From the NCBI GenBank assembly GCA_030583765.1, contig CP129474.1:521348-585347 (forward strand): DNA of 64,000 bases. Direction: 5' to 3'. A program made the translations under genes and the position numbers. This DNA is from Minisyncoccota bacterium. Its GTDB lineage: Bacteria; Patescibacteriota; Minisyncoccia; 2-02-FULL-40-12; GWA2-44-9. Shown here piece after piece: positions 4,391-50,531 of this stretch (positions are counted from its first letter, which is position 1; each line of letters begins with the position of its first letter). Under the pieces are notes generated by a model. It was not told the DNA's origin, made no database searches, and saw nothing but the letters and a program-made list of their open reading frames with translations.

Positions 4391-5650
4391 ATGGATCGTA
4401 TTCTGACCGCACTGAAGCGTCCGGAGCTCCGGAGCAAGATACTCTTTATTCTGGGTATCCTTGCATTGTCGCGCGTCCTCTCAACGATCCCTGTGCCTGC
4501 AATCGACGGCAGTCAGTTGAAGGAATTTTTTGCAAACAACCAATTCTTTGGTCTTATTAGCGCGTTCACGGGTGGTGGCCTCTCCAATCTTTCCATTGCC
4601 ATGATCGGCTTGGGTGCATACATCACCGCGTCGATCATTATGCAGTTGATGACTATGATCTTTCCTTCGATGGAGCAGTTGTACAAACATGAAGGAGAGG
4701 CGGGTCGCGCAAAGTTCAATCAATATTCCCGCATGCTTGCAGTGCCACTCGGCGCTATCCAGGCATACGGATTTCTAACGCTCTTGGTGCGTCAGAGTGT
4801 TATCCCTGCGATGTCCGGGTTCGAATGGTTTAATGCCATCACTGTTGTGGTTGCGGGAAGTATGCTTCTTATGTGGCTTGGTGAGCTGATGACCGAAAAG
4901 AATCTCGGCAACGGTGTCTCGCTCTTGATTCTTGCGGGTATCGCTGCGAGCATTCCCACAACGCTCCGACAGGCAATTTTTACCTACACACCCGATCAAC
5001 TCGTCACCTACATTGTCTTTGCAGTAATCTCGCTGGTTGTTATCGCCGGGGTCGTCTTTATCTCAGAGGCGCAGCGTAATATTCCAGTAACCTACGCGCG
5101 TCGCGTGCGCGGTTCCCGTGTATTCGGTGGGGTTTCCACGTATCTTCCTATGCGTGTGAATAACGCTGGTGTTATCCCGATTATCTTCGCACTCTCAATT
5201 CTTCTCTTCCCGGGCACGATCGCCACCTTCTTTGCGGGCTCGAGCATTACATTCCTTGCGAACGCGGCGCAATTCGTGCAGAACATTCTTGCGAGCAACC
5301 TGTGGTACAGCATATTCTACTTTGTGCTCGTGGTGCTCTTCACCTTCTTCTACACGGCAGTGACGTTTGATCCGAAGTCTATCTCTGAAAACATCCAGAA
5401 GCAGGGCGGCTACATTCCCGGCTTGCGTCCAGGTCCTATGACCGCGCAATTCCTCTCGTATCTGGTAAACCGCATCACGTTGGTCGGCGCACTCTTCCTT
5501 GGCGCAGTTGCTGTGCTCCCTAATGTGGTACAGGGCTTCACCGGCTTGACCGCCTTCTCCATTGGTGGAACAACTGTACTTATCGTGGTGTCAGTTGCGC
5601 TTGAGCTCATGAAACAGCTCGACGCTCAAGTCAGCATGTACGAATACTAG
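4391..5650 (+). CDS. secY: Preprotein translocase subunit SecY
   Basis: ATG at 4391 is in frame with the 4313 ORF. The protein is multi-TM, has SecY motifs and sits after L15. Confidence 0.9.
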   Translation: MDRILTALKRPELRSKILFILGILALSRVLSTIPVPAIDGSQLKEFFANNQFFGLISAFTGGGLSNLSIAMIGLGAYITASIIMQLMTMIFPSMEQLYKHEGEAGRAKFNQYSRMLAVPLGAIQAYGFLTLLVRQSVIPAMSGFEWFNAITVVVAGSMLLMWLGELMTEKNLGNGVSLLILAGIAASIPTTLRQAIFTYTPDQLVTYIVFAVISLVVIAGVVFISEAQRNIPVTYARRVRGSRVFGGVSTYLPMRVNNAGVIPIIFALSILLFPGTIATFFAGSSITFLANAAQFVQNILASNLWYSIFYFVLVVLFTFFYTAVTFDPKSISENIQKQGGYIPGLRPGPMTAQFLSYLVNRITLVGALFLGAVAVLPNVVQGFTGLTAFSIGGTTVLIVVSVALELMKQLDAQVSMYEY

Positions 5651-5697
5651 TAAAAACGAAGTAGAAAATTTCTCCCAAGGGCGCCCAAGCGGCGCTC

Positions 5698-5726
5698 TTG
5701 ACTTTTACATAAATAAACTGGATAAT
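5698..5726 (+). promoter_or_regulatory. Cassette 1 promoter: TTGACT-17bp-GATAAT
   Basis: -35 is TTGACT at 5698-5703. The spacer is 17 nt. -10 is GATAAT at 5721-5726. The RBS GAGGAGGTGGGC ends 1 nt before ATG 5750. Confidence 0.6.
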
Positions 5727-5749
5727 GTATGCACCACGAGGAGGTGGGC

Positions 5750-6151
5750 ATGGAGAGCTTTTTCACTGACATGGGCGAGGGCGATCGCGTGGTCGCGCAC
5801 GTCGGGATGCACTCGATCGACATGAGCCCCGAAGGGCGACCGGATGTGGCCTTGTCGTTGCCGATCAACGACATCGGGTACGGGGAGAGCGCTGATGTGT
5901 TGGAGGAGTATATCCTCGCCATCAACGCTGCGCTGAAGCTGGCTCATCGTCGGCTTCGTCTCGAAAGGGTTTTCGACCACCATGGCGAAGAGGTCGTGTT
6001 CGAGGGCGAGGTTTCTTTCGAGGGGCTGGTCGAAGAGGAGGGTCGTCGGGAAGAGGAGAACCCGGAAGATCCTCTGTACGCGAAGAGATTCGTTTTCATC
6101 TTCGAGGCGCTCCCCAACCCGACGTTGCGGGATCGCCACATGATGCCCTAG
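5750..6151 (+). CDS. Hypothetical acidic protein (cassette 1); GC-rich foreign-looking ORF inserted between secY and adk
   Basis: 133 aa. The start is set by the strong RBS: MESFFTDMGEGDRV... The codons are G/C3-saturated, unlike the flanking ribosomal genes. No motif was recognised. Confidence 0.6.
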   Translation: MESFFTDMGEGDRVVAHVGMHSIDMSPEGRPDVALSLPINDIGYGESADVLEEYILAINAALKLAHRRLRLERVFDHHGEEVVFEGEVSFEGLVEEEGRREEENPEDPLYAKRFVFIFEALPNPTLRDRHMMP

Positions 6152-6231: not shown

Positions 6232-6921
6232 ATGGAAAAACAGGCAATCATTCTCATTGGGCCACCGGGCGCAGGGAAGGGAACACAAGCTGAATTACTC
6301 GCCGATGATTTCGGTTTTTTTCACTTTGACACCTCGCAAATCATCGAAGAACGTTTTCGTACTGCGCCCGCCGATGATCCCGTGATCGCGCAAGCGAAGG
6401 CGAACTATGATGCGGGAAAACTCGTAGAGCCAGCACTCGTGGCAAGTTGGGTGATTGATAAAATCCGGGCGCTCGGCATTGGCGGCACCAGCATTGTATT
6501 TAGTGGTTCGTTCCGTACAAACACCGAAGCAGCTGAAGAGCTCCCCGTATTGCAAGAAGTGTATGGCGCCAAAAATGTGCACATTGTGAACATTGAAGTG
6601 GGAGAAGAAGAGTCGGTGAAGCGCAACTCGGGTCGTCGGGTGTGTAAGGTAAACCGTCACCCCATTCCCAACTTCCCGGAATTTGCGAATATCACTGCGT
6701 GCCCCAAAGATGGTAGTGAGATCGTGACGCGGAGTCTCGACGTTCCCGAAACTATTCGCGTGCGCTACGCAACATATCAAGAGCAAACGAAGCCCGTTGT
6801 CGCCTACTTTGAGGGGCAAGGGTATACGGTCATCCGCATCGATGGCGAACAACCCATTCGCAAGGTGCATGAAGATATCATGGAGCGTATTCACGAATTT
6901 TCACATCCGCAAAATATATGA
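6232..6921 (+). CDS. adk: Adenylate kinase
   Basis: MEKQAIILIGPPGAGKGTQ P-loop at the N-terminus. ATG 6232 is in frame within the 6154 ORF. Confidence 0.9.
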   Translation: MEKQAIILIGPPGAGKGTQAELLADDFGFFHFDTSQIIEERFRTAPADDPVIAQAKANYDAGKLVEPALVASWVIDKIRALGIGGTSIVFSGSFRTNTEAAEELPVLQEVYGAKNVHIVNIEVGEEESVKRNSGRRVCKVNRHPIPNFPEFANITACPKDGSEIVTRSLDVPETIRVRYATYQEQTKPVVAYFEGQGYTVIRIDGEQPIRKVHEDIMERIHEFSHPQNI

Positions 6922-7673
6922 TCCTCAAAGAGCAAGATATTCAATTCATGCGTGAAGGTGGAAAAATACTCGCAACAATATTGCGAGAGCTTGCCGCGTC
7001 AGTGAAGCCCGGCATGCCCACGCAGGCATTAGAAGACATCGCCCGTGAGCGTATCGCAGCGCATGGGGTTACTTCATCTTTTTTGGGATATAACGGGTAT
7101 CCCGCAACGCTCTGTGTGAGTGTGAATGAGGAAGCGGTGCATGCAGTGCCGGGAGGATACATCATCCAAGAGGGAGATCTGGTAAAGCTTGATTTCGGCG
7201 TGGTGCACCATGGCCTGCACACTGATAGCGCCGTGACCGTGATTGCCGGACTCACCGACGCACGAAAAAAAGAGTGGCAAGACCGCATCACGCTTTCGCG
7301 CGTAACGCGTGAGGCGCTCTATGCGGGCATTGCGCAAGCGCGTGCCGGAAACACGGTGGGGCACATCGGTGCTGCAATCCAAGCGCATGCAGAAAAAAAT
7401 GGATTCACGGTTTTAAAAGATCTGGGTGGACACGGGATCGGTATGCGGTTGCATGAGGATCCTTTTGTGCCAAACCACGGCTCTGCGGGGGAGGGGGACA
7501 CACTCGTAGCCGGCATGGCGCTTGCGATCGAACCTATTTTAACGACGGGCACACACAAGACAAAAGACGGAACCGATGGCTTTGCATACGTCACCAAAAA
7601 CGGAGCGCTCTCTGCACATTTTGAACATACTATTATCGTCACGGAGGGGGCTCCTATCATCGTAACTGAGTAG
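6918..7673 (+). CDS. map: Methionine aminopeptidase type I
   Basis: 251 aa with a typical MetAP pita-bread fold sequence. It follows adk. Confidence 0.9.
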   Translation: MILKEQDIQFMREGGKILATILRELAASVKPGMPTQALEDIARERIAAHGVTSSFLGYNGYPATLCVSVNEEAVHAVPGGYIIQEGDLVKLDFGVVHHGLHTDSAVTVIAGLTDARKKEWQDRITLSRVTREALYAGIAQARAGNTVGHIGAAIQAHAEKNGFTVLKDLGGHGIGMRLHEDPFVPNHGSAGEGDTLVAGMALAIEPILTTGTHKTKDGTDGFAYVTKNGALSAHFEHTIIVTEGAPIIVTE

Positions 7674-7685
7674 TCCTAAGGGGTA

Positions 7686-7713
7686 TTGACTTTATATACA
7701 AAGGTAGTATAAT
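7686..7713 (+). promoter_or_regulatory. Cassette 2 promoter: TTGACT-16bp-TATAAT
   Basis: -35 at 7686-7691 and -10 at 7708-7713. The RBS CAGGAGGTGGCAC is followed by ATG 7735. Confidence 0.6.
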
Positions 7714-7734
7714 ATACGCTCAGGAGGTGGCACT

Positions 7735-8328
7735 ATGGCCACGATGATGCAGGTCGGTCTGGCGGAGTTCGGCGCGAACGTCCGCCCCATCGCGGAGCGC
7801 ACCTTTCGGTGCCTCGTGCACAAGCGCGAGGTGACGTCTCGGGACGGTTTCGTCCTGAGCATCGGCAACATCCAGAAGGAGCTCGGACTGCCGGCGAAGC
7901 AGCTGCCGGCGATTCACCAGCTCAGCGGGTTCGTCGCCTGCTACGAGTGTCTCCCGAGTGTGAGGTCCTTCTACGGGGTGTCGTTCATGCCCCGCCTCGG
8001 GGACCAGCTCGCGCTGCTCGATCGGCACTTCAAGCTGGCGGCCCAGCAGGTGAGGGCGCGGCCGATCGCTCCGGCGACGGTCGTGCAGGGCACGACGACG
8101 GGGCGCACGGGGACGGCCATGCCCACGCTCCCTGCCGGCTACTTCGAGCGCCGGGGCCAGGCCCACAAGGGCCGGAAGTCCCGGGCCCAGAGGCGCGCGG
8201 AGGCGATGGCCAAGCGCGCGCGGCCGGCGGCCACCGCGGCCGTCGACAAGAAGGCCGCGAAGAAGGCCGCCAAGCAGGCGGCCAAGGCCAAGAACCAGAA
8301 GGGCAACGGTGGCAAGAAGCGCCACTAG
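7735..8328 (+). CDS. Hypothetical protein with histone H1/AlgP-like KAAK-repeat basic tail (cassette 2), likely nucleic-acid binding
   Basis: 197 aa. The N-terminal domain is about 110 aa. The tail reads ...KRARPAATAAVDKKAAKKAAKQAAKAKNQKGNGGKKRH. The sequence is very GC-rich. Overlapping alternative-frame ORFs are GC artefacts. Confidence 0.6.
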   Translation: MATMMQVGLAEFGANVRPIAERTFRCLVHKREVTSRDGFVLSIGNIQKELGLPAKQLPAIHQLSGFVACYECLPSVRSFYGVSFMPRLGDQLALLDRHFKLAAQQVRARPIAPATVVQGTTTGRTGTAMPTLPAGYFERRGQAHKGRKSRAQRRAEAMAKRARPAATAAVDKKAAKKAAKQAAKAKNQKGNGGKKRH

Positions 8329-8338
8329 CGGCCCACTT

Positions 8339-8388
8339 GCGGGGGTGTGTGCATACGGTGCACATACCCCCGCTTTTTCTTTGTTTTT
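8339..8388 (+). terminator. Intrinsic terminator of cassette 2
   Basis: GCGGGGGTGTGTGCA...TGCACATACCCCCGC hairpin followed by TTTTTCTTTGTTTTT. Confidence 0.6.
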
Positions 8389-8406
8389 CCATATAGGCAT
8401 ACACTA

Positions 8407-8436
8407 TTGACCTCTGGAAGGCTCTTCTGATATACT
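8407..8436 (+). promoter_or_regulatory. Putative 23S-5S rRNA operon promoter (TTGACC-18-TATACT) with leader hairpins downstream
   Basis: A near-consensus promoter lies about 290 bp upstream of the 23S 5' end. Leader stem-loops at about 8505-8535 and 8680-8720 look like processing stems. Confidence 0.4.
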
Positions 8437-8722
8437 CCCTAGTACCCAAAGATGATTACCTACCAGACAAGCGAAACCCTCAGCGGCTGACAGACCGTGT
8501 TCGCACGTCTGAAAAAGCCGCCTCAAGGCGGTTTCTGTGTCTCTAGGAGCATCACGCGGGTCGCTTCGCCCTAAGGGGCGAGACGAACCTCGCTCCATGA
8601 TCCTTTGGTATCATGAGCGGGCAGTACGTTGACAACGTGGAACGGGAGCTGAACGAAAGTTCAGCTTTGTATTGTTCGCTTTATAAGAGACCTAGGACCT
8701 CGAGTCCTAGGTGGTACTTTGT

Positions 8723-11815
<3,093 letters not shown>

Positions 11816-11873
11816 GGTCTCTTATAAAACAAACAACACAAAACCGTTCCACGTAGCGTAAAAACGCTAGAAA

Positions 11874-11985
11874 CTTGGCAGCTATACTGTAGGTGTCCCA
11901 CCTGATCCCATTCCGAACTCAGAAGTGAAATCCTGCAAGGCCCATGATAGTCGGACTCTTCCGGCGAAAGTAGGTAGCTGCCAGA
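11874..11985 (+). rRNA. rrf: 5S ribosomal RNA
   Basis: CTTGGCAGC...CCCACCTGATCCCATTCCGAACTCAGAAGTGAAA...GCTGCCAG; canonical 5S helices. Confidence 0.8.
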
Positions 11986-12024
11986 TTTCTGGCGTTTTTA
12001 TGTTGGTGAGGTATACTTGCAGAT

Positions 12025-27330: not shown

Positions 27331-27936
27331 GTGAAGGTTCTCGTCGTTGCCGGGTACGGGGTGACGCCCGTACGAAACTACGCCATGGAGACAGAGCGCT
27401 ATCTGCTCCGTGCCGCAGAGTTGCTCAGGGAGGCATACGAGGGCGGCGATCCGTTCTCCAATCTCATCCTGTGCGGCGGCATGACCCAGCAGAAGACATC
27501 GCCACATGTCACAGAGGCGTACGCGATGCACGAACGTCTTCGCACGTTGACCATGTGGACTGATGGGAAGCTCGTACCCTCCTTCTGGGACGCTGTGCTG
27601 GTCTCGCACGAAGAGCGTTCATTCACTTCGCTGGAGAACGTACGAAACGCGAGTGAGCGCATTTATCAGCTGTGGGAGCAATTCGATGAGGAGCTCCACA
27701 TCACCGTGCTGTGCGAAGGCATGCGCCTCCTGAAGTGGCAGATCTTGTGTCGCCACTTCATGCCGAAGACGACCACGCCCATCCAGTACGAGATCGTCAA
27801 CTGGGAGCTGATGTCACCCCACAAGGAGTTGATGGCGACCATCTGGGACGCGTGTTCGGTCTCGATTCCCATTATCGGGCCAGCGATGGCGTGGTGGTGG
27901 GGATGGCGTCGCCGTCGGCGCGCCAAGCACATCTAG
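27331..27936 (+). CDS. DUF218 (YdcF/SanA/ElyC)-like protein with W/R-rich C-terminal tail (cassette 3, gene b)
   Basis: 201 aa. VLVVAGYG...R...LILCGGMTQQKTSPHVTEAYAMHERL resembles the DUF218 GG/SEA core. The tail reads AMAWWWGWRRRRRAKHI. Start is GTG. Confidence 0.55.
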   Translation: MKVLVVAGYGVTPVRNYAMETERYLLRAAELLREAYEGGDPFSNLILCGGMTQQKTSPHVTEAYAMHERLRTLTMWTDGKLVPSFWDAVLVSHEERSFTSLENVRNASERIYQLWEQFDEELHITVLCEGMRLLKWQILCRHFMPKTTTPIQYEIVNWELMSPHKELMATIWDACSVSIPIIGPAMAWWWGWRRRRRAKHI

Positions 27937-27945
27937 CCCCTACCG

Positions 27946-27985
27946 CCGGTCGCACACGTTGTGCGGTCGGCGGGCTTTTATTTTC
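27946..27985 (+). terminator. Intrinsic terminator of cassette 3
   Basis: CCGCCGGTCGCACACGTTGTGCGGTCGGCGG hairpin followed by GCTTTTATTTT. The ychF stop codon (complement of 27978-80) lies inside the T tract. Confidence 0.6.
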
Positions 27986-29106: not shown

Positions 29107-29135
29107 TTGACTTTATCGCTTTAAACTGGTATAAT
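29107..29135 (+). promoter_or_regulatory. Cassette 4 promoter: TTGACT-17bp-TGGTATAAT (extended -10) plus about 100-nt structured leader
   Basis: -35 at 29107-12 and -10 at 29130-35. The leader has hairpins CCATCCTCTAGGAGGGGATGG and TCGGCTAACAGCCGA before RBS GGAGAGAAGCA and ATG 29242. Confidence 0.55.
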
Positions 29136-29241
29136 TATAGAGTACAGTGTAGTACCTTTACATGCAGAACTGCCGCATTTCGCGGCCCATCCTCTAGGAG
29201 GGGATGGAAGAATCTCGGCTAACAGCCGAAGGAGAGAAGCA

Positions 29242-29835
29242 ATGAAGTATGACGAGATGACGTGGGGCACGATGGAGGCCGTGGTCAACAAGCTTGGCGG
29301 CATGGATGGCGTTCAGCGCTTCCTGCGCGGCGCGCTCAAGGTCGTCGAGGCGGAGGCCAATGCCGCCTTCTCGACGTTCCAGAAGATCACGCTCAGCGTG
29401 TACGACAACGTCGCGACGCTTCGCAAGGCGATCGCGGACAGCGGCAACAACATCAGCGACTACGGGGAAGACCTGCTCGCCAAGATGTCGCTGGTGAAGG
29501 AGCCCGTCGAGCTCGAGCTGGTGTGCGTGTCGGTCAAGGATCTGGGCCTGAAGTCCGGAGCCACGATCAAGCAGATCTACGATCGCGCTCGCAAGCTTGG
29601 CTTGGACCTCTGCCCGGCCCAGGTCGGACCCGAGCTCCGCCTGGCCTACCAGGATCAGCCCATCGGCGAGTGGCTGCTGGTGGCGATGGAGCAGATCACG
29701 GATCGCAACGGTCACCCGAGCGTGTTCATCGTCGGGTGTGACGTCCACGGCGTCCGCTGGTTGGACGGCGATTACGCCTACCCGAGCAACACCTGGAGCG
29801 GCCTCAGCCGTTGGGTGTTCGTCCGTCGCGCGTAA
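29242..29835 (+). CDS. Hypothetical protein (cassette 4)
   Basis: 197 aa beginning MKYDEMTWGTMEAVVNKLGG... It is GC-rich with G/C3 codons. No motif was recognised. Confidence 0.55.
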   Translation: MKYDEMTWGTMEAVVNKLGGMDGVQRFLRGALKVVEAEANAAFSTFQKITLSVYDNVATLRKAIADSGNNISDYGEDLLAKMSLVKEPVELELVCVSVKDLGLKSGATIKQIYDRARKLGLDLCPAQVGPELRLAYQDQPIGEWLLVAMEQITDRNGHPSVFIVGCDVHGVRWLDGDYAYPSNTWSGLSRWVFVRRA

Positions 29836-29886
29836 GCCCTTAGCGCTTGGCAGCTTAGTTCTCTGAACTTGGAAGCTGAGCCCTGC

Positions 29887-29920
29887 GCCCGCACAGAAAT
29901 GTGCGGGCTCTTTATTTTTA
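29887..29920 (+). terminator. Intrinsic terminator of cassette 4
   Basis: GCCCGCAC-AGAAAT-GTGCGGGC followed by TCTTTATTTTTA. The terminal TTA is the stop codon (complement) of the convergent nucleotidyltransferase gene. Confidence 0.6.
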
Positions 29921-48974: not shown

Positions 48975-49244
48975 CTCAATGGTAGAGCGTCTCGCTGTGA
49001 GATAAACGCAGCTTTGCGTCGAAAGGCGCACTGAAACTTTCTGGGATAACGGTGAAGCCCCTTCGTTTTTTTACGAGAGGTAATACCGTGGGAACCCCGC
49101 CTTGGCGGGGGCGCCGTAGAGACTAGATACCAGAACGCCTGTGTCGCATGCGCGATATGGCGAAGATATAGTCCACGCCGGTATGAAAATACCGGAATTC
49201 GTGTAACGAGAGGGTTGTAGGTTCGAGTCCTACCCGCGGAGCCA
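48965..49244 (+). tRNA. tRNA-Asn (anticodon GUU) interrupted by a 205-nt group I intron (exons 48965-48998 and 49204-49244)
   Basis: Exon 1 is TCCGCGG-TA-GCTC-AATGGTA-GAGC-G-TCTCG-CTGT. Exon 2 is TAA-CGAGA-GGGTT-GTAGG-TTCGAGT-CCTAC-CCGCGGA-G-CCA. The spliced loop is CTGTTAA, giving anticodon GUU. Confidence 0.7.
48999..49203 (+). ncRNA. Group I self-splicing intron within tRNA-Asn anticodon loop
   Basis: P1 forms between exon GCUGU and intron GCAGC (49008-12), with a U.G pair at the splice site. The intron ends in G. P7 elements AGACTAG (about 49118-24) and AAGATATAGTCC (49163-74) are conserved. Confidence 0.7.
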
Positions 49245-49248
49245 AATC

Positions 49249-49283
49249 AAAACACCGCATCTTCTGCGGTGTTTTGATTTAAT
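49249..49283 (+). terminator. Intrinsic terminator after tRNA-Asn
   Basis: AAAACACCGCA-TCTTC-TGCGGTGTTTT followed by GATTTAAT. Confidence 0.5.
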
Positions 49284-49341
49284 CCCCTGGTGGACGTTAG
49301 AACTTAAAAATGATTAAATTGAATAAATAGTAAGTAGTCTC

Positions 49342-50082
49342 ATGGCGTACAATATGAGTTTAGAGCAAATACCAAATCAAGCACCTAAGCAGGAAATAAA
49401 AGTTCAACCTAAAATAGAAGTTGAACCAAATTTTGATGGTTTCGTTCCAGATGAATTTAAAAACGACCCCCTAAAATATTTTGAAGAGAAGGGCACTAAC
49501 ATAAAGCCTGGAGAAACAAAATATGATGAAACTGGTCGGGTCCGCGAAGATCCAACCGCTGTAAAAGATTTACCAGTTTGGAAGAATAAAGAAGGAGTTG
49601 AGCTACATACAGTTGGAAAAAGAGTGAACAAAGAGAAGGGCAAGATTGGTGAGATTAGGGATCCGTTTTATGAATATAAAGTTATGGAAATTATTCAAGA
49701 ATTAGGTTTGCCATGTCCTAGGCCAGTTGCAAGGGTAGAACAAGGAGGCAATAACCTTATCGTGATGGAACGAGTTCATGGTATCCGTTGGCCAGATAAA
49801 GATAGTCTACATCTTAATGAGAAAGGATATTCTGCTGAAGATATTCAGGGCTTGATCAGCCAGGCAGAGGTCATGGTAAGGGAATTGCATAGAAAATTCG
49901 AAGACGCTGGTATTTCAAGAGATTGGAAATTAAAAGATATGCTTTTTGATATTGACATAGAAAATAAGAAAATTAATTCCATTGTTCCTACAGATTGGGA
50001 AAGAACCACAATAAACCAAGAAAAATTGGCACAGGCCAGAGCATTGAAGCGACAAACTAAATTAGATACCGAAGGACCCTAA
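49342..50082 (+). CDS. Hypothetical protein in AT-rich islet, possible atypical (RIO/Kdo-like) kinase fold
   Basis: 246 aa, K/E-rich. LIVMERVHG...RDWKLKDMLFDID loosely resembles the hinge and catalytic-loop regions of small atypical kinases. This is weak. Confidence 0.35.
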   Translation: MAYNMSLEQIPNQAPKQEIKVQPKIEVEPNFDGFVPDEFKNDPLKYFEEKGTNIKPGETKYDETGRVREDPTAVKDLPVWKNKEGVELHTVGKRVNKEKGKIGEIRDPFYEYKVMEIIQELGLPCPRPVARVEQGGNNLIVMERVHGIRWPDKDSLHLNEKGYSAEDIQGLISQAEVMVRELHRKFEDAGISRDWKLKDMLFDIDIENKKINSIVPTDWERTTINQEKLAQARALKRQTKLDTEGP

Positions 50083-50186
50083 ATCCGGGACATGGATATA
50101 TCCATTATGCTTTTGCAAAATAGTTCTAACGTTGTTCACGGTTCGGAGCAAGGAATAGAAAAATAAGCTATTATAAACGATAGCCT

Positions 50187-50531
50187 ATGCTGTCCCCCAG
50201 AATCCAATTCGTTGTTCGATTTATTATCGCTGGGTTTTTGTTTCTTGCTATAACAACTTCACTGCTAGGGTCTACCGGTGTGCGAGGGTTTCCAAAGTAT
50301 CCAGACTCTCTGTTAAGAACTGGCGTCGATTCACCATTTGCCTGGAAGCGCACGGTAGCTACGGTGATTCTGCCAATCAAAATTGTTCTTATAGGCCCGC
50401 TCTCTCTGGAGTCTGTCGATCTTTTAAAAGATGATCCGCCACCTCCCTTTATTGCGATATATCTTATCTGCTACTGGACGATTCTTGCCTCAGGCATTTA
50501 TGCTGTGTCTCATAGCATAAAACAGAGCTAG
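50187..50531 (+). CDS. Hypothetical membrane protein in AT-rich islet
   Basis: 114 aa with 3 hydrophobic segments. Confidence 0.35.
   Translation: MLSPRIQFVVRFIIAGFLFLAITTSLLGSTGVRGFPKYPDSLLRTGVDSPFAWKRTVATVILPIKIVLIGPLSLESVDLLKDDPPPPFIAIYLICYWTILASGIYAVSHSIKQS

Follow-up and report, generated by a model that had tools for sequence, protein, structure and literature searches.

The window, a stretch of 64,000 nucleotides from a Minisyncoccota bacterium (contig CP129474.1, positions 521,348 to 585,347), contains a gene of 197 codons that is flanked by map and by the promoter of the 23S rRNA. This gene, the open reading frame (ORF) 7735-8328, is the subject of the present analysis. Ribosomal-protein genes come first in this part of the window, followed in order by secY (4391-5650), a small ORF, adk, map (6918-7673; Peptidase_M24, E 9e-43), ORF 7735-8328, 23S rRNA (8718-11809), and 5S rRNA (11874-11986). 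The start codon of QY311_02910, as the gene is named, is the ATG at 7735, and its stop codon lies at 8326-8328. Together with its promoter, Shine-Dalgarno sequence, and terminator (Table 1), the ORF makes up a complete monocistronic transcription unit, and an rRNA promoter-like site is found downstream of the terminator, at 8407-8436. An earlier note on this DNA had described a cassette between map and the rRNA promoter, encoding a 197-aa protein with two Cys/His motifs and a basic tail; the ORF with these motifs and tail and the flanks were all recovered, and with its promoter and terminator the cassette is self-contained. Assemblies made independently and deposited at NCBI, ENA, and Logan show the same arrangement, and thus the gene is not an assembly artefact. 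Its signals suggest that it is probably strongly expressed.

Five alleles were compared, that of the window and those of loci L090, L091/P0002, L003/P0004, and L001/P0003. The GC content of the ORF at codon positions 1/2/3 is 0.66/0.51/0.94. Every indel across the alleles is a multiple of three. The promoter, Shine-Dalgarno sequence, start codon, and terminator are conserved, the latter with compensatory changes in L001. The ratio of nonsynonymous to synonymous substitution rates (dN/dS, by NG86) is below 1 throughout, ranging from 0.34 to 0.87, with 0.8 between the two allele classes defined in Table 1. ORF 7735-8328 is a genuine protein-coding gene in this frame.

The encoded protein consists of an N-terminal domain (N-domain), a linker, and a basic C-terminal half. 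Residues C26, H29, C69, and C72 (CxxH...CxxC) are invariant in all five alleles, and the N-domains are otherwise just 54-60% identical; C26, C69, and C72 are the only three cysteines in the window protein. The four conserved Cys/His ligands stand in two pairs (C26-x2-H29 and C69-x2-C72), as required of a zinc finger, and probably constitute a zinc site. The globular head with conserved Cys/His proposed in the earlier note agrees with these observations, and the P/A/T-rich linker lies, as had been proposed, before the basic tail (residues 105-138). AlphaFold2 gave a predicted local distance difference test score (pLDDT) of 48 for the full protein modelled with four sequences, too low for the model to be used, and a marginal 59.5 for the N-domain alone.

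Residues 139-197 have an isoelectric point (pI) of 12 and contain 22 K/R and 17 A per 59 residues. Many alignment columns are invariant in residues 139-165, and residues 166-197 are nearly invariant across the five alleles. Conservation is thus highest in the basic half of the protein and lowest in the Cys/His N-domain. The tail had been called a classic histone-H1/Hc1/AlgP tail, but this likeness turned out to be one of composition only: no model matches at E<=1, and the KAAK part is a 12-nt (4-aa) unit repeated 3.3 times at 8247-8286, that is, about three KAAK units, with the other basic residues non-repetitive. Because a globular Cys/His head is combined with a very basic Lys/Ala-rich tail, binding of DNA or another polyanion is a reasonable expectation, and the composition makes such binding by the tail plausible. 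To this extent the suggestion of a nucleoid- or DNA-targeting effector or regulator may be retained, but no observation favors its effector part: the 197-aa protein has no signal peptide-like N-terminus and the locus has no secretion context.

Table 1. Features of ORF 7735-8328, of its surroundings in the window, and of related loci (coordinates refer to the window unless a locus is named).
Feature	Position	Strand	Remarks
Sigma-70-type promoter TTGACT-16 nt-TATAAT	7686..7713	+	consensus match 11/12; sequence kept in L001, L003, L004
Shine-Dalgarno sequence AGGAGGTG	7722..7729	+	ATG 5 nt further on; read in sequence; same in all alleles
Protein-coding gene, 197 aa + stop	7735..8328	+	NCBI: hypothetical protein, Ca. 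Paceibacterota (QY311_02910); P0001 match 100%
Variable N-terminal domain, residues 1-104, mixed alpha/beta	7735..8046	+	class A (window, L090); class B (L091/P0002, L003/P0004, L001/P0003)
P/A/T/G-rich linker, residues 105-138	8047..8148	+	conserved motifs QVRARPI..P.T.V and TLPxGYFE
First basic segment, residues 139-165, RRGQAHKGRKSRAQRRAEAMAKRARPA	8149..8229	+	Arg/Lys-rich, non-repetitive; 11 K/R in 27 residues, pI 12
Lys/Ala-rich C-terminal tail, residues 166-197, ...VDKKAAKKAAKQAAKAKNQKGNGGKKRH	8230..8325	+	11 K/R + 10 A in 32 residues
Intrinsic terminator, 16-bp GC-rich hairpin (8339-8373) + T-run	8339..8383	+	minimum free energy -32.7 kcal/mol, z = -5.5
In-phase antisense ORF, 226 aa, not a gene	7720..8400	-	by-product of third-position GC of 0.94; identity below sense frame
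Antisense ORF calls, 227-242 aa	L090:11971-12654, L091:337-1050, L092:8001-8729		public gene calls
Cassette 1	5676-6151		terminator-like hairpin 5676-5700 overlapping promoter TTGACT-17-GATAAT 5698-5726
Cassette 1, acidic ORF	5750-6151 (ORF span 5729-6151)		133 aa, pI 4.6, third-position GC 0.78
Amidase_3 gene	L001:8815-9576 / L092:7139-7900		

The protein could not be assigned to any known family. With the full 197-aa sequence, hmmscan against Pfam-A, which presumably includes the Linker_histone, Hc1, and HC2 models, returned 0 families at E<=1; scans of PHROGs and PADLOC likewise returned 0 families at E<=1 in either, and NCBIfam yielded no model at E<=1. A sequence profile search of the PDB gave noise only (E>0.6). 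When 1.84 billion representative proteins were queried with a profile built on residues 1-166, the matches were the protein's own cluster and the spurious P0005 (E 1e-5), a 775-aa tandem-repeat translation that was rejected as a homologue, and nothing else. A full-length word-based search of 5.8 billion clusters found four sense-frame proteins, all from Patescibacteria. There were no relatives in IMG/VR or among GenBank phages, and a scan of metagenome contigs re-found two Hainich contigs and nothing further. Nor does the N-domain match a housekeeping family, which agrees with the reading of the earlier note. As far as these searches reach, ORF 7735-8328 is a clade-restricted orphan gene whose product combines an unclassified head, seemingly a folded domain, with an H1-like basic tail.

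The gene is carried by a single isolated clade of Paceibacterota, in each of its three known species-level lineages, and the carrier genomes have 52-54% GC. In every carrier, secY is followed by one to three small ORFs and these by adk, map, and the homologue of ORF 7735-8328, which is always directly 3' of map (L001/L092, L003, L090, L091, and L005); 23S comes after it in the window, L003, L004, and L090. An Amidase_3 gene (N-acetylmuramoyl-L-alanine amidase) with a GC content at third codon positions (GC3) of 0.74 is situated between the terminator and 23S in the L001/L092 lineage. A map probe against GTDB species representatives exceeded 50% identity in one only (88%; L008, on the same contig as L003), and the next-best map had 49% identity, so that the carrier clade is isolated and small. 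The earlier note had regarded the gene as inserted between map and the rRNA promoter. Because its position is conserved in all known close relatives, the gene is a fixed resident of the clade and not a recent insertion.

The absence of the infA/rpsM/rpsK/rpsD/rpoA/rplQ block from the window, also mentioned in that note, was reproduced: queries with IF-1, S13, S11, S4, RpoA, and L17 had no match in it (tblastn). The accompanying claim that the ORF displaced this continuation does not hold. Among the 80 nearest map loci of species-representative genomes, infA and rpsM follow map in three, and these records are titled Balneolaceae, Armatimonadota, and Zixiibacteriota, that is, non-Patescibacteria. 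In most Parcubacteria loci, map is followed by an Ndk of about 200 aa; in loci L009-L087, from Parcubacteria and Saccharibacteria-labelled metagenome-assembled genomes, the order secY-adk-map is usually continued by this long Ndk and not by infA. Because Ndk rather than infA usually follows map in Parcubacteria, the break after map is older than ORF 7735-8328. The ORF fills a slot that in this group is normally held by ndk, and the alpha-operon linkage was not broken by it. No ndk was found in the 64-kb window or at the loci of its relatives. The possibility that the ORF itself is a diverged ndk was rejected, since it does not align with the outgroup NDK (outgroup E 8e-38).

The alleles of the gene are mosaic. 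By their flanks, the window, L090, and L091 belong to one species, with nucleotide divergence of 0.9-1.5% in adk and 2-3.7% in map. Between the window and L091, divergence is 0.9% in adk, 3.7% in map, 33.8% in the N-domain (7735-8046), 0.5% in the middle segment (8047-8232), and 2% in the tail (Fisher p = 2e-30). Between the window and L090, the N-domain differs by 2.9%, the middle segment, to which the linker belongs, by 20.8%, and the tail by 2.1% (p = 2e-9). The L091 N-domain falls into the class of the other two lineages and is 17% divergent from that of L003, which equals the divergence of the flanks; the L090 middle segment likewise resembles that of L003. Because two classes of N-domain and two of middle segment are combined differently in each of the three strains, recombination has occurred within the gene and alleles are shared across species. 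We infer that this allele diversity is maintained by selection.

Two further observations concern the neighborhood of the mosaic gene. At 7364-7460, inside map, the window differs by about 10% from the conspecific L090 and L091, which here are nearer to L003 than elsewhere; this patch looks like a small recombination tract. The gap between secY and adk is a second variable slot, represented in the window by Cassette 1. An acidic ORFan family (x-family; pI 4.6, GC3 0.66-0.83), which is confined to the carrier clade and has three subtypes, is found there in one to three copies arranged in tandem, sometimes with an extra small basic ORF beside them (L090:9587-9874, L001:6136-6432). The ORFs of this slot have no Pfam matches, and a toxin/antitoxin or immunity family was not retained as an explanation for them. 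Co-variation of the N-domain allele type with the x-family subtype was not retained either: the two agree in the window, L090, and L091 and disagree in L003, and five genomes are a small basis for a decision. Alleles or copy number at both the secY-adk and the map-23S slot differ between near-identical strains.

The second distinctive property of ORF 7735-8328 is its base composition. The window has 52% GC and a mean ORF GC3 of 0.55 (standard deviation 0.09). GC3 of the ORF ranges from 0.91 to 0.965 over all alleles, compared with 0.47-0.54 in adk and map, 0.61-0.63 in secY, and 0.44-0.51 in ribosomal-protein genes, and composition shifts sharply at both of its ends. Depending on the allele, A occupies the third position in 1-4 and T in 6-17 of about 197 codons. 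In the flanking genes, the synonymous rate dS is 1.2-2.4 between the three lineages, which corresponds to synonymous saturation, and dN/dS is 0.02-0.09. At four-fold sites of the ORF whose first two bases are unchanged, 32-47% of positions differ between lineages, and C<->G changes account for 56-85% of these differences (29 of 34 for the window and L001). The turnover is thus near saturation for a two-letter alphabet. Codons ending in A or T are found in 41 alignment columns, of which 26 are private to a single allele and one is common to all five.

Because the A- or T-ending codons are mostly private to one allele, AT mutations arise without persisting; because the four-fold sites are saturated by C<->G changes, the GC3 bias is actively maintained and is no remnant of a transfer. 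These two observations exclude a recent transfer that has not yet ameliorated. The high-expression codon preference of the genome was also rejected as a cause, given the GC3 of the ribosomal-protein genes. An ongoing force is required, namely selection for codons ending in G or C, GC-biased gene conversion (Lassalle et al., 2015; PMC4450053), or repeated import from an unseen high-GC pool.

An unlikely alternative, which nevertheless deserves attention, is horizontal acquisition from a high-GC donor such as a host, phage, or plasmid. In this scenario the composition is foreign, and alleles may have been re-imported via the conserved flanks. The GC content at the three codon positions and the Ala/Arg/Gly-rich product indeed resemble a gene of the actinobacterium type, and the abrupt change of composition at the ORF ends would be expected. 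The source of class A alleles, which are 34-41% divergent from class B, is unsampled, and other ORFan cassettes of the window have raised GC3 as well (0.78 for 5729-6151 and 0.89 for 29242-29835). However, no homologue was found elsewhere among the representative proteins, IMG/VR, or GenBank phages, none of the carrier genomes is GC-rich, and synteny points to a single ancestral arrival. A passive signature of that age should have ameliorated, but the four-fold sites turned over mostly by C<->G changes with no drift to the genomic 0.55, and the A- or T-ending codons are mostly confined to single alleles.

The window contains several other compositional outliers. A third unit of like design is situated at 29107-29908, with a promoter TTGACT-17-TATAAT at 29107-29135 (11/12, with a TG extension), an ORF at 29242-29835 that also encodes 197 aa and has no Pfam match, and a terminator at 29887-29908. 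No similarity between this ORF and ORF 7735-8328 was found, and kinship of the two was rejected. ORF 27331-27936, with a GC3 of 0.79, matches DUF218 weakly and below the threshold (E 3e-5) and is followed by a strong terminator at 27943-27973. The opposite outlier is a 246-aa ORF at 49342-50082 (GC 0.38, GC3 0.29), and the region 49001-50500 is AT-rich as well.

A housekeeping function, as a ribosome- or rRNA-associated protein (a lineage-specific ribosomal protein or assembly factor) or a conventional nucleoid protein, is quite improbable. In this case the gene would stand in the ribosomal super-operon beside 23S because its product acts there. It could be suggested by the location between secY-adk-map and 23S-5S, by the strong expression signals, by the presence of the gene in every known member of the clade, and by the basic tail, which is conserved more strongly than the head. 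However, a 34% difference in one domain is unexpected where adk and map are 96-99% identical, and the gene, with a promoter and a terminator of its own, is not co-transcribed with its neighbors. The Amidase_3 gene parts it from 23S in L001/L092, its GC3 is unlike that of ribosomal-protein genes, and the profile search indicates that it is missing from all other Patescibacteria.

Several observations concern the rRNA genes themselves. No 16S rRNA was found upstream of 23S-5S (8718-11986) in the window, and so the rRNA genes are unlinked there. With 3092 nt, the 23S match is longer than the model of 2925 positions, which implies about 170 nt of extra sequence. In the leader of the window 23S, about 60 nt that contain two small hairpins are inserted (about 8512-8600); this insertion is missing from L090, L091/L004, and L003, whose leaders are otherwise near-identical to that of the window.

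An error in the annotated frame, or a non-coding locus, with an antisense gene or a structured RNA or DNA element before the rRNA promoter, is very hard to believe and is already largely ruled out. Three further long ORFs overlap ORF 7735-8328. The in-phase antisense frame is open over the full gene in the four alleles tested, and gene callers picked it in several public Logan and ENA/NCBI assemblies, L090 among them. Its openness, however, is automatic, because the sense GC3 is 0.94 and A is nearly absent from third positions: antisense stops mirror only the sense codons TTA, CTA, and TCA. Amino-acid identity is higher in the sense than in the antisense frame in every allele pair, and on this ground the antisense ORF was rejected as a real gene. 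Moreover, it would begin within the rRNA promoter region and traverse the terminator, whereas the promoter, Shine-Dalgarno sequence, and terminator all point in the sense direction. The +2 frame was rejected since it is interrupted in L001 and L003. The antisense translation was useful as a query, which recovered the additional loci L090 and L091; because public calls take the antisense ORF, the true protein is absent from some protein collections.

The GC-rich segment of the ORF folds stably, and thus a conserved mRNA structure was considered as the cause of the G/C third positions. With RNAalifold, the covariation term for the five alleles is unfavorable (+14.3 kcal/mol), many pairs are broken inside the coding sequence, and the terminator hairpin alone is supported; therefore a structured RNA is not supported, and the indels in multiples of three also argue against it.

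The reading that we put forward is that of a protein with a zinc head, a linker, and a polycationic tail, encoded by a recombining conflict or specificity gene that is under an ongoing force on GC3. As a whole, this explanation is tentative and stands nearly as good a chance of being right as of being wrong. By analogy with other basic tails, the disordered Arg/Lys/Ala tail of about 60 residues would bind a polyanion non-specifically, be it DNA (of the chromosome or incoming), RNA, or perhaps polyphosphate. The N-domain of about 100 residues, held by the CxxH...CxxC zinc site, would provide specific contact with a protein or nucleic acid, and the flexible Pro/Thr/Ala/Gly linker would join the two. 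The contact surface of the N-domain would be the evolving part, with the partner driving allele turnover. Homologous recombination would carry N-domain and middle alleles from strain to strain and over species boundaries, with the conserved ribosomal-protein operon and 23S rRNA probably serving as homology arms. Third positions would be kept G/C by selection for codons ending in these letters or by GC-biased gene conversion at a recombination hotspot. A mosaic pattern with a conserved tail and a variable head is typical of conflict or specificity interface genes, and a conflict role would be consistent with it.

This reading can be narrowed further, at the cost of becoming rather unlikely in its entirety. 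The gene would then encode a new class of protein specific to the Candidate Phyla Radiation, an abundant zinc-finger protein with a polycationic tail and a polymorphic recognition domain under balancing or diversifying selection; its alleles would be shuffled across species via the ultra-conserved ribosomal flanks. Its GC3 would have been made in situ, by recombination-driven GC-biased gene conversion or by direct selection on codons ending in G or C, and would then rank with the most marked local cases of such a force in bacteria. Such a protein might be a nucleoid protein facing xenogeneic DNA or phages, or a partner of the acidic secY-adk ORFans.

Several points weigh against a recombining conflict or specificity gene under such a force. 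The known alleles number just five and come from three lineages. Because dN/dS is below 1, and is hard to read with synonymous sites restricted to G and C, positive selection is not demonstrated. Expression is deduced solely from sequence signals, nucleic-acid binding rests on neither experiment nor homology, and the KAAK part is only some three units long. To our knowledge, GC-biased gene conversion this strong has not been described in bacteria, and the effects on GC3 found by Lassalle and colleagues are reportedly modest.

This one 600-bp gene provides a natural experiment on base composition, in which synonymous sites turned over completely yet stayed G/C in a genome with a GC3 of about 0.55. 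A basic-tailed protein alone would be a minor curiosity; what is new is the maintained GC3, the mosaic alleles, and the combination of a conserved tail with a variable head. The most conserved operon of an episymbiont-type lineage (615-kb contig) carries two recombination-shuffled ORFan slots, which suggests that conserved ribosomal genes act as landing pads for the exchange of conflict or specificity genes. Automatic annotation often takes the wrong strand here, and as a result the family is under-represented in protein databases.

Among known systems, those that may come nearest to the N-domain include small zinc-finger domains of the treble-clef/cross-brace type (ZnF-UBP, ZZ, B-box, and C1). 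For the protein as a whole, one parallel is mycobacterial HupB, in which a globular domain is fused to a Lys/Ala-rich H1-like tail. AlgP and Hc2 carry many more repeat units than the three or so of the window protein. Lys-rich low-complexity tails bind DNA in Ku of M. smegmatis (PMC3553676) and DdbA of Streptomyces (PMC3643593), PhaF of P. aeruginosa binds RNA and has an intrinsically disordered region for this binding (PMC12818456), and AlgP, which resembles histone H1, spaces polyphosphate granules (PMC9239181). Like mycobacterial Ku with its PAKKA repeats, HupB, DdbA, AlgP, and PhaF, the protein described here has a disordered polycationic Lys/Ala(/Arg) tail attached to a folded module. Unlike them, it has a very short repeat, an Arg-rich non-repetitive segment before this repeat, and an unclassified Cys/His N-domain, and it shares no sequence homology with any of these proteins.

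With chlamydial Hc1/Hc2 and eukaryotic H1, the protein shares a Lys/Ala-rich C-terminus, and by analogy charge-driven compaction of DNA is plausible. Unlike these proteins, it has no winged-helix globular domain and no Pfam match at E<=1, and it is far less repetitive. Its pattern of variation is the reverse of that in Chlamydia Hc2, where the repeat region is the variable part (PMC2848022): here the tail is conserved and the head varies.

At the level of the locus, the secY-adk and map-23S slots, which hold clade-specific ORFans inside the most conserved cluster of the genome, are comparable to the strain-variable slots of the SAR11 type. In SAR11, a hypervariable region beside the rRNA genes forms such a slot bounded by conserved genes. 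We know of no counterpart to a persistent GC3 of 0.94 among strain-variable slots. Unlike in slots of the SAR11 type, the same gene is always present at map-23S, and only its segments are swapped while gene content remains constant.

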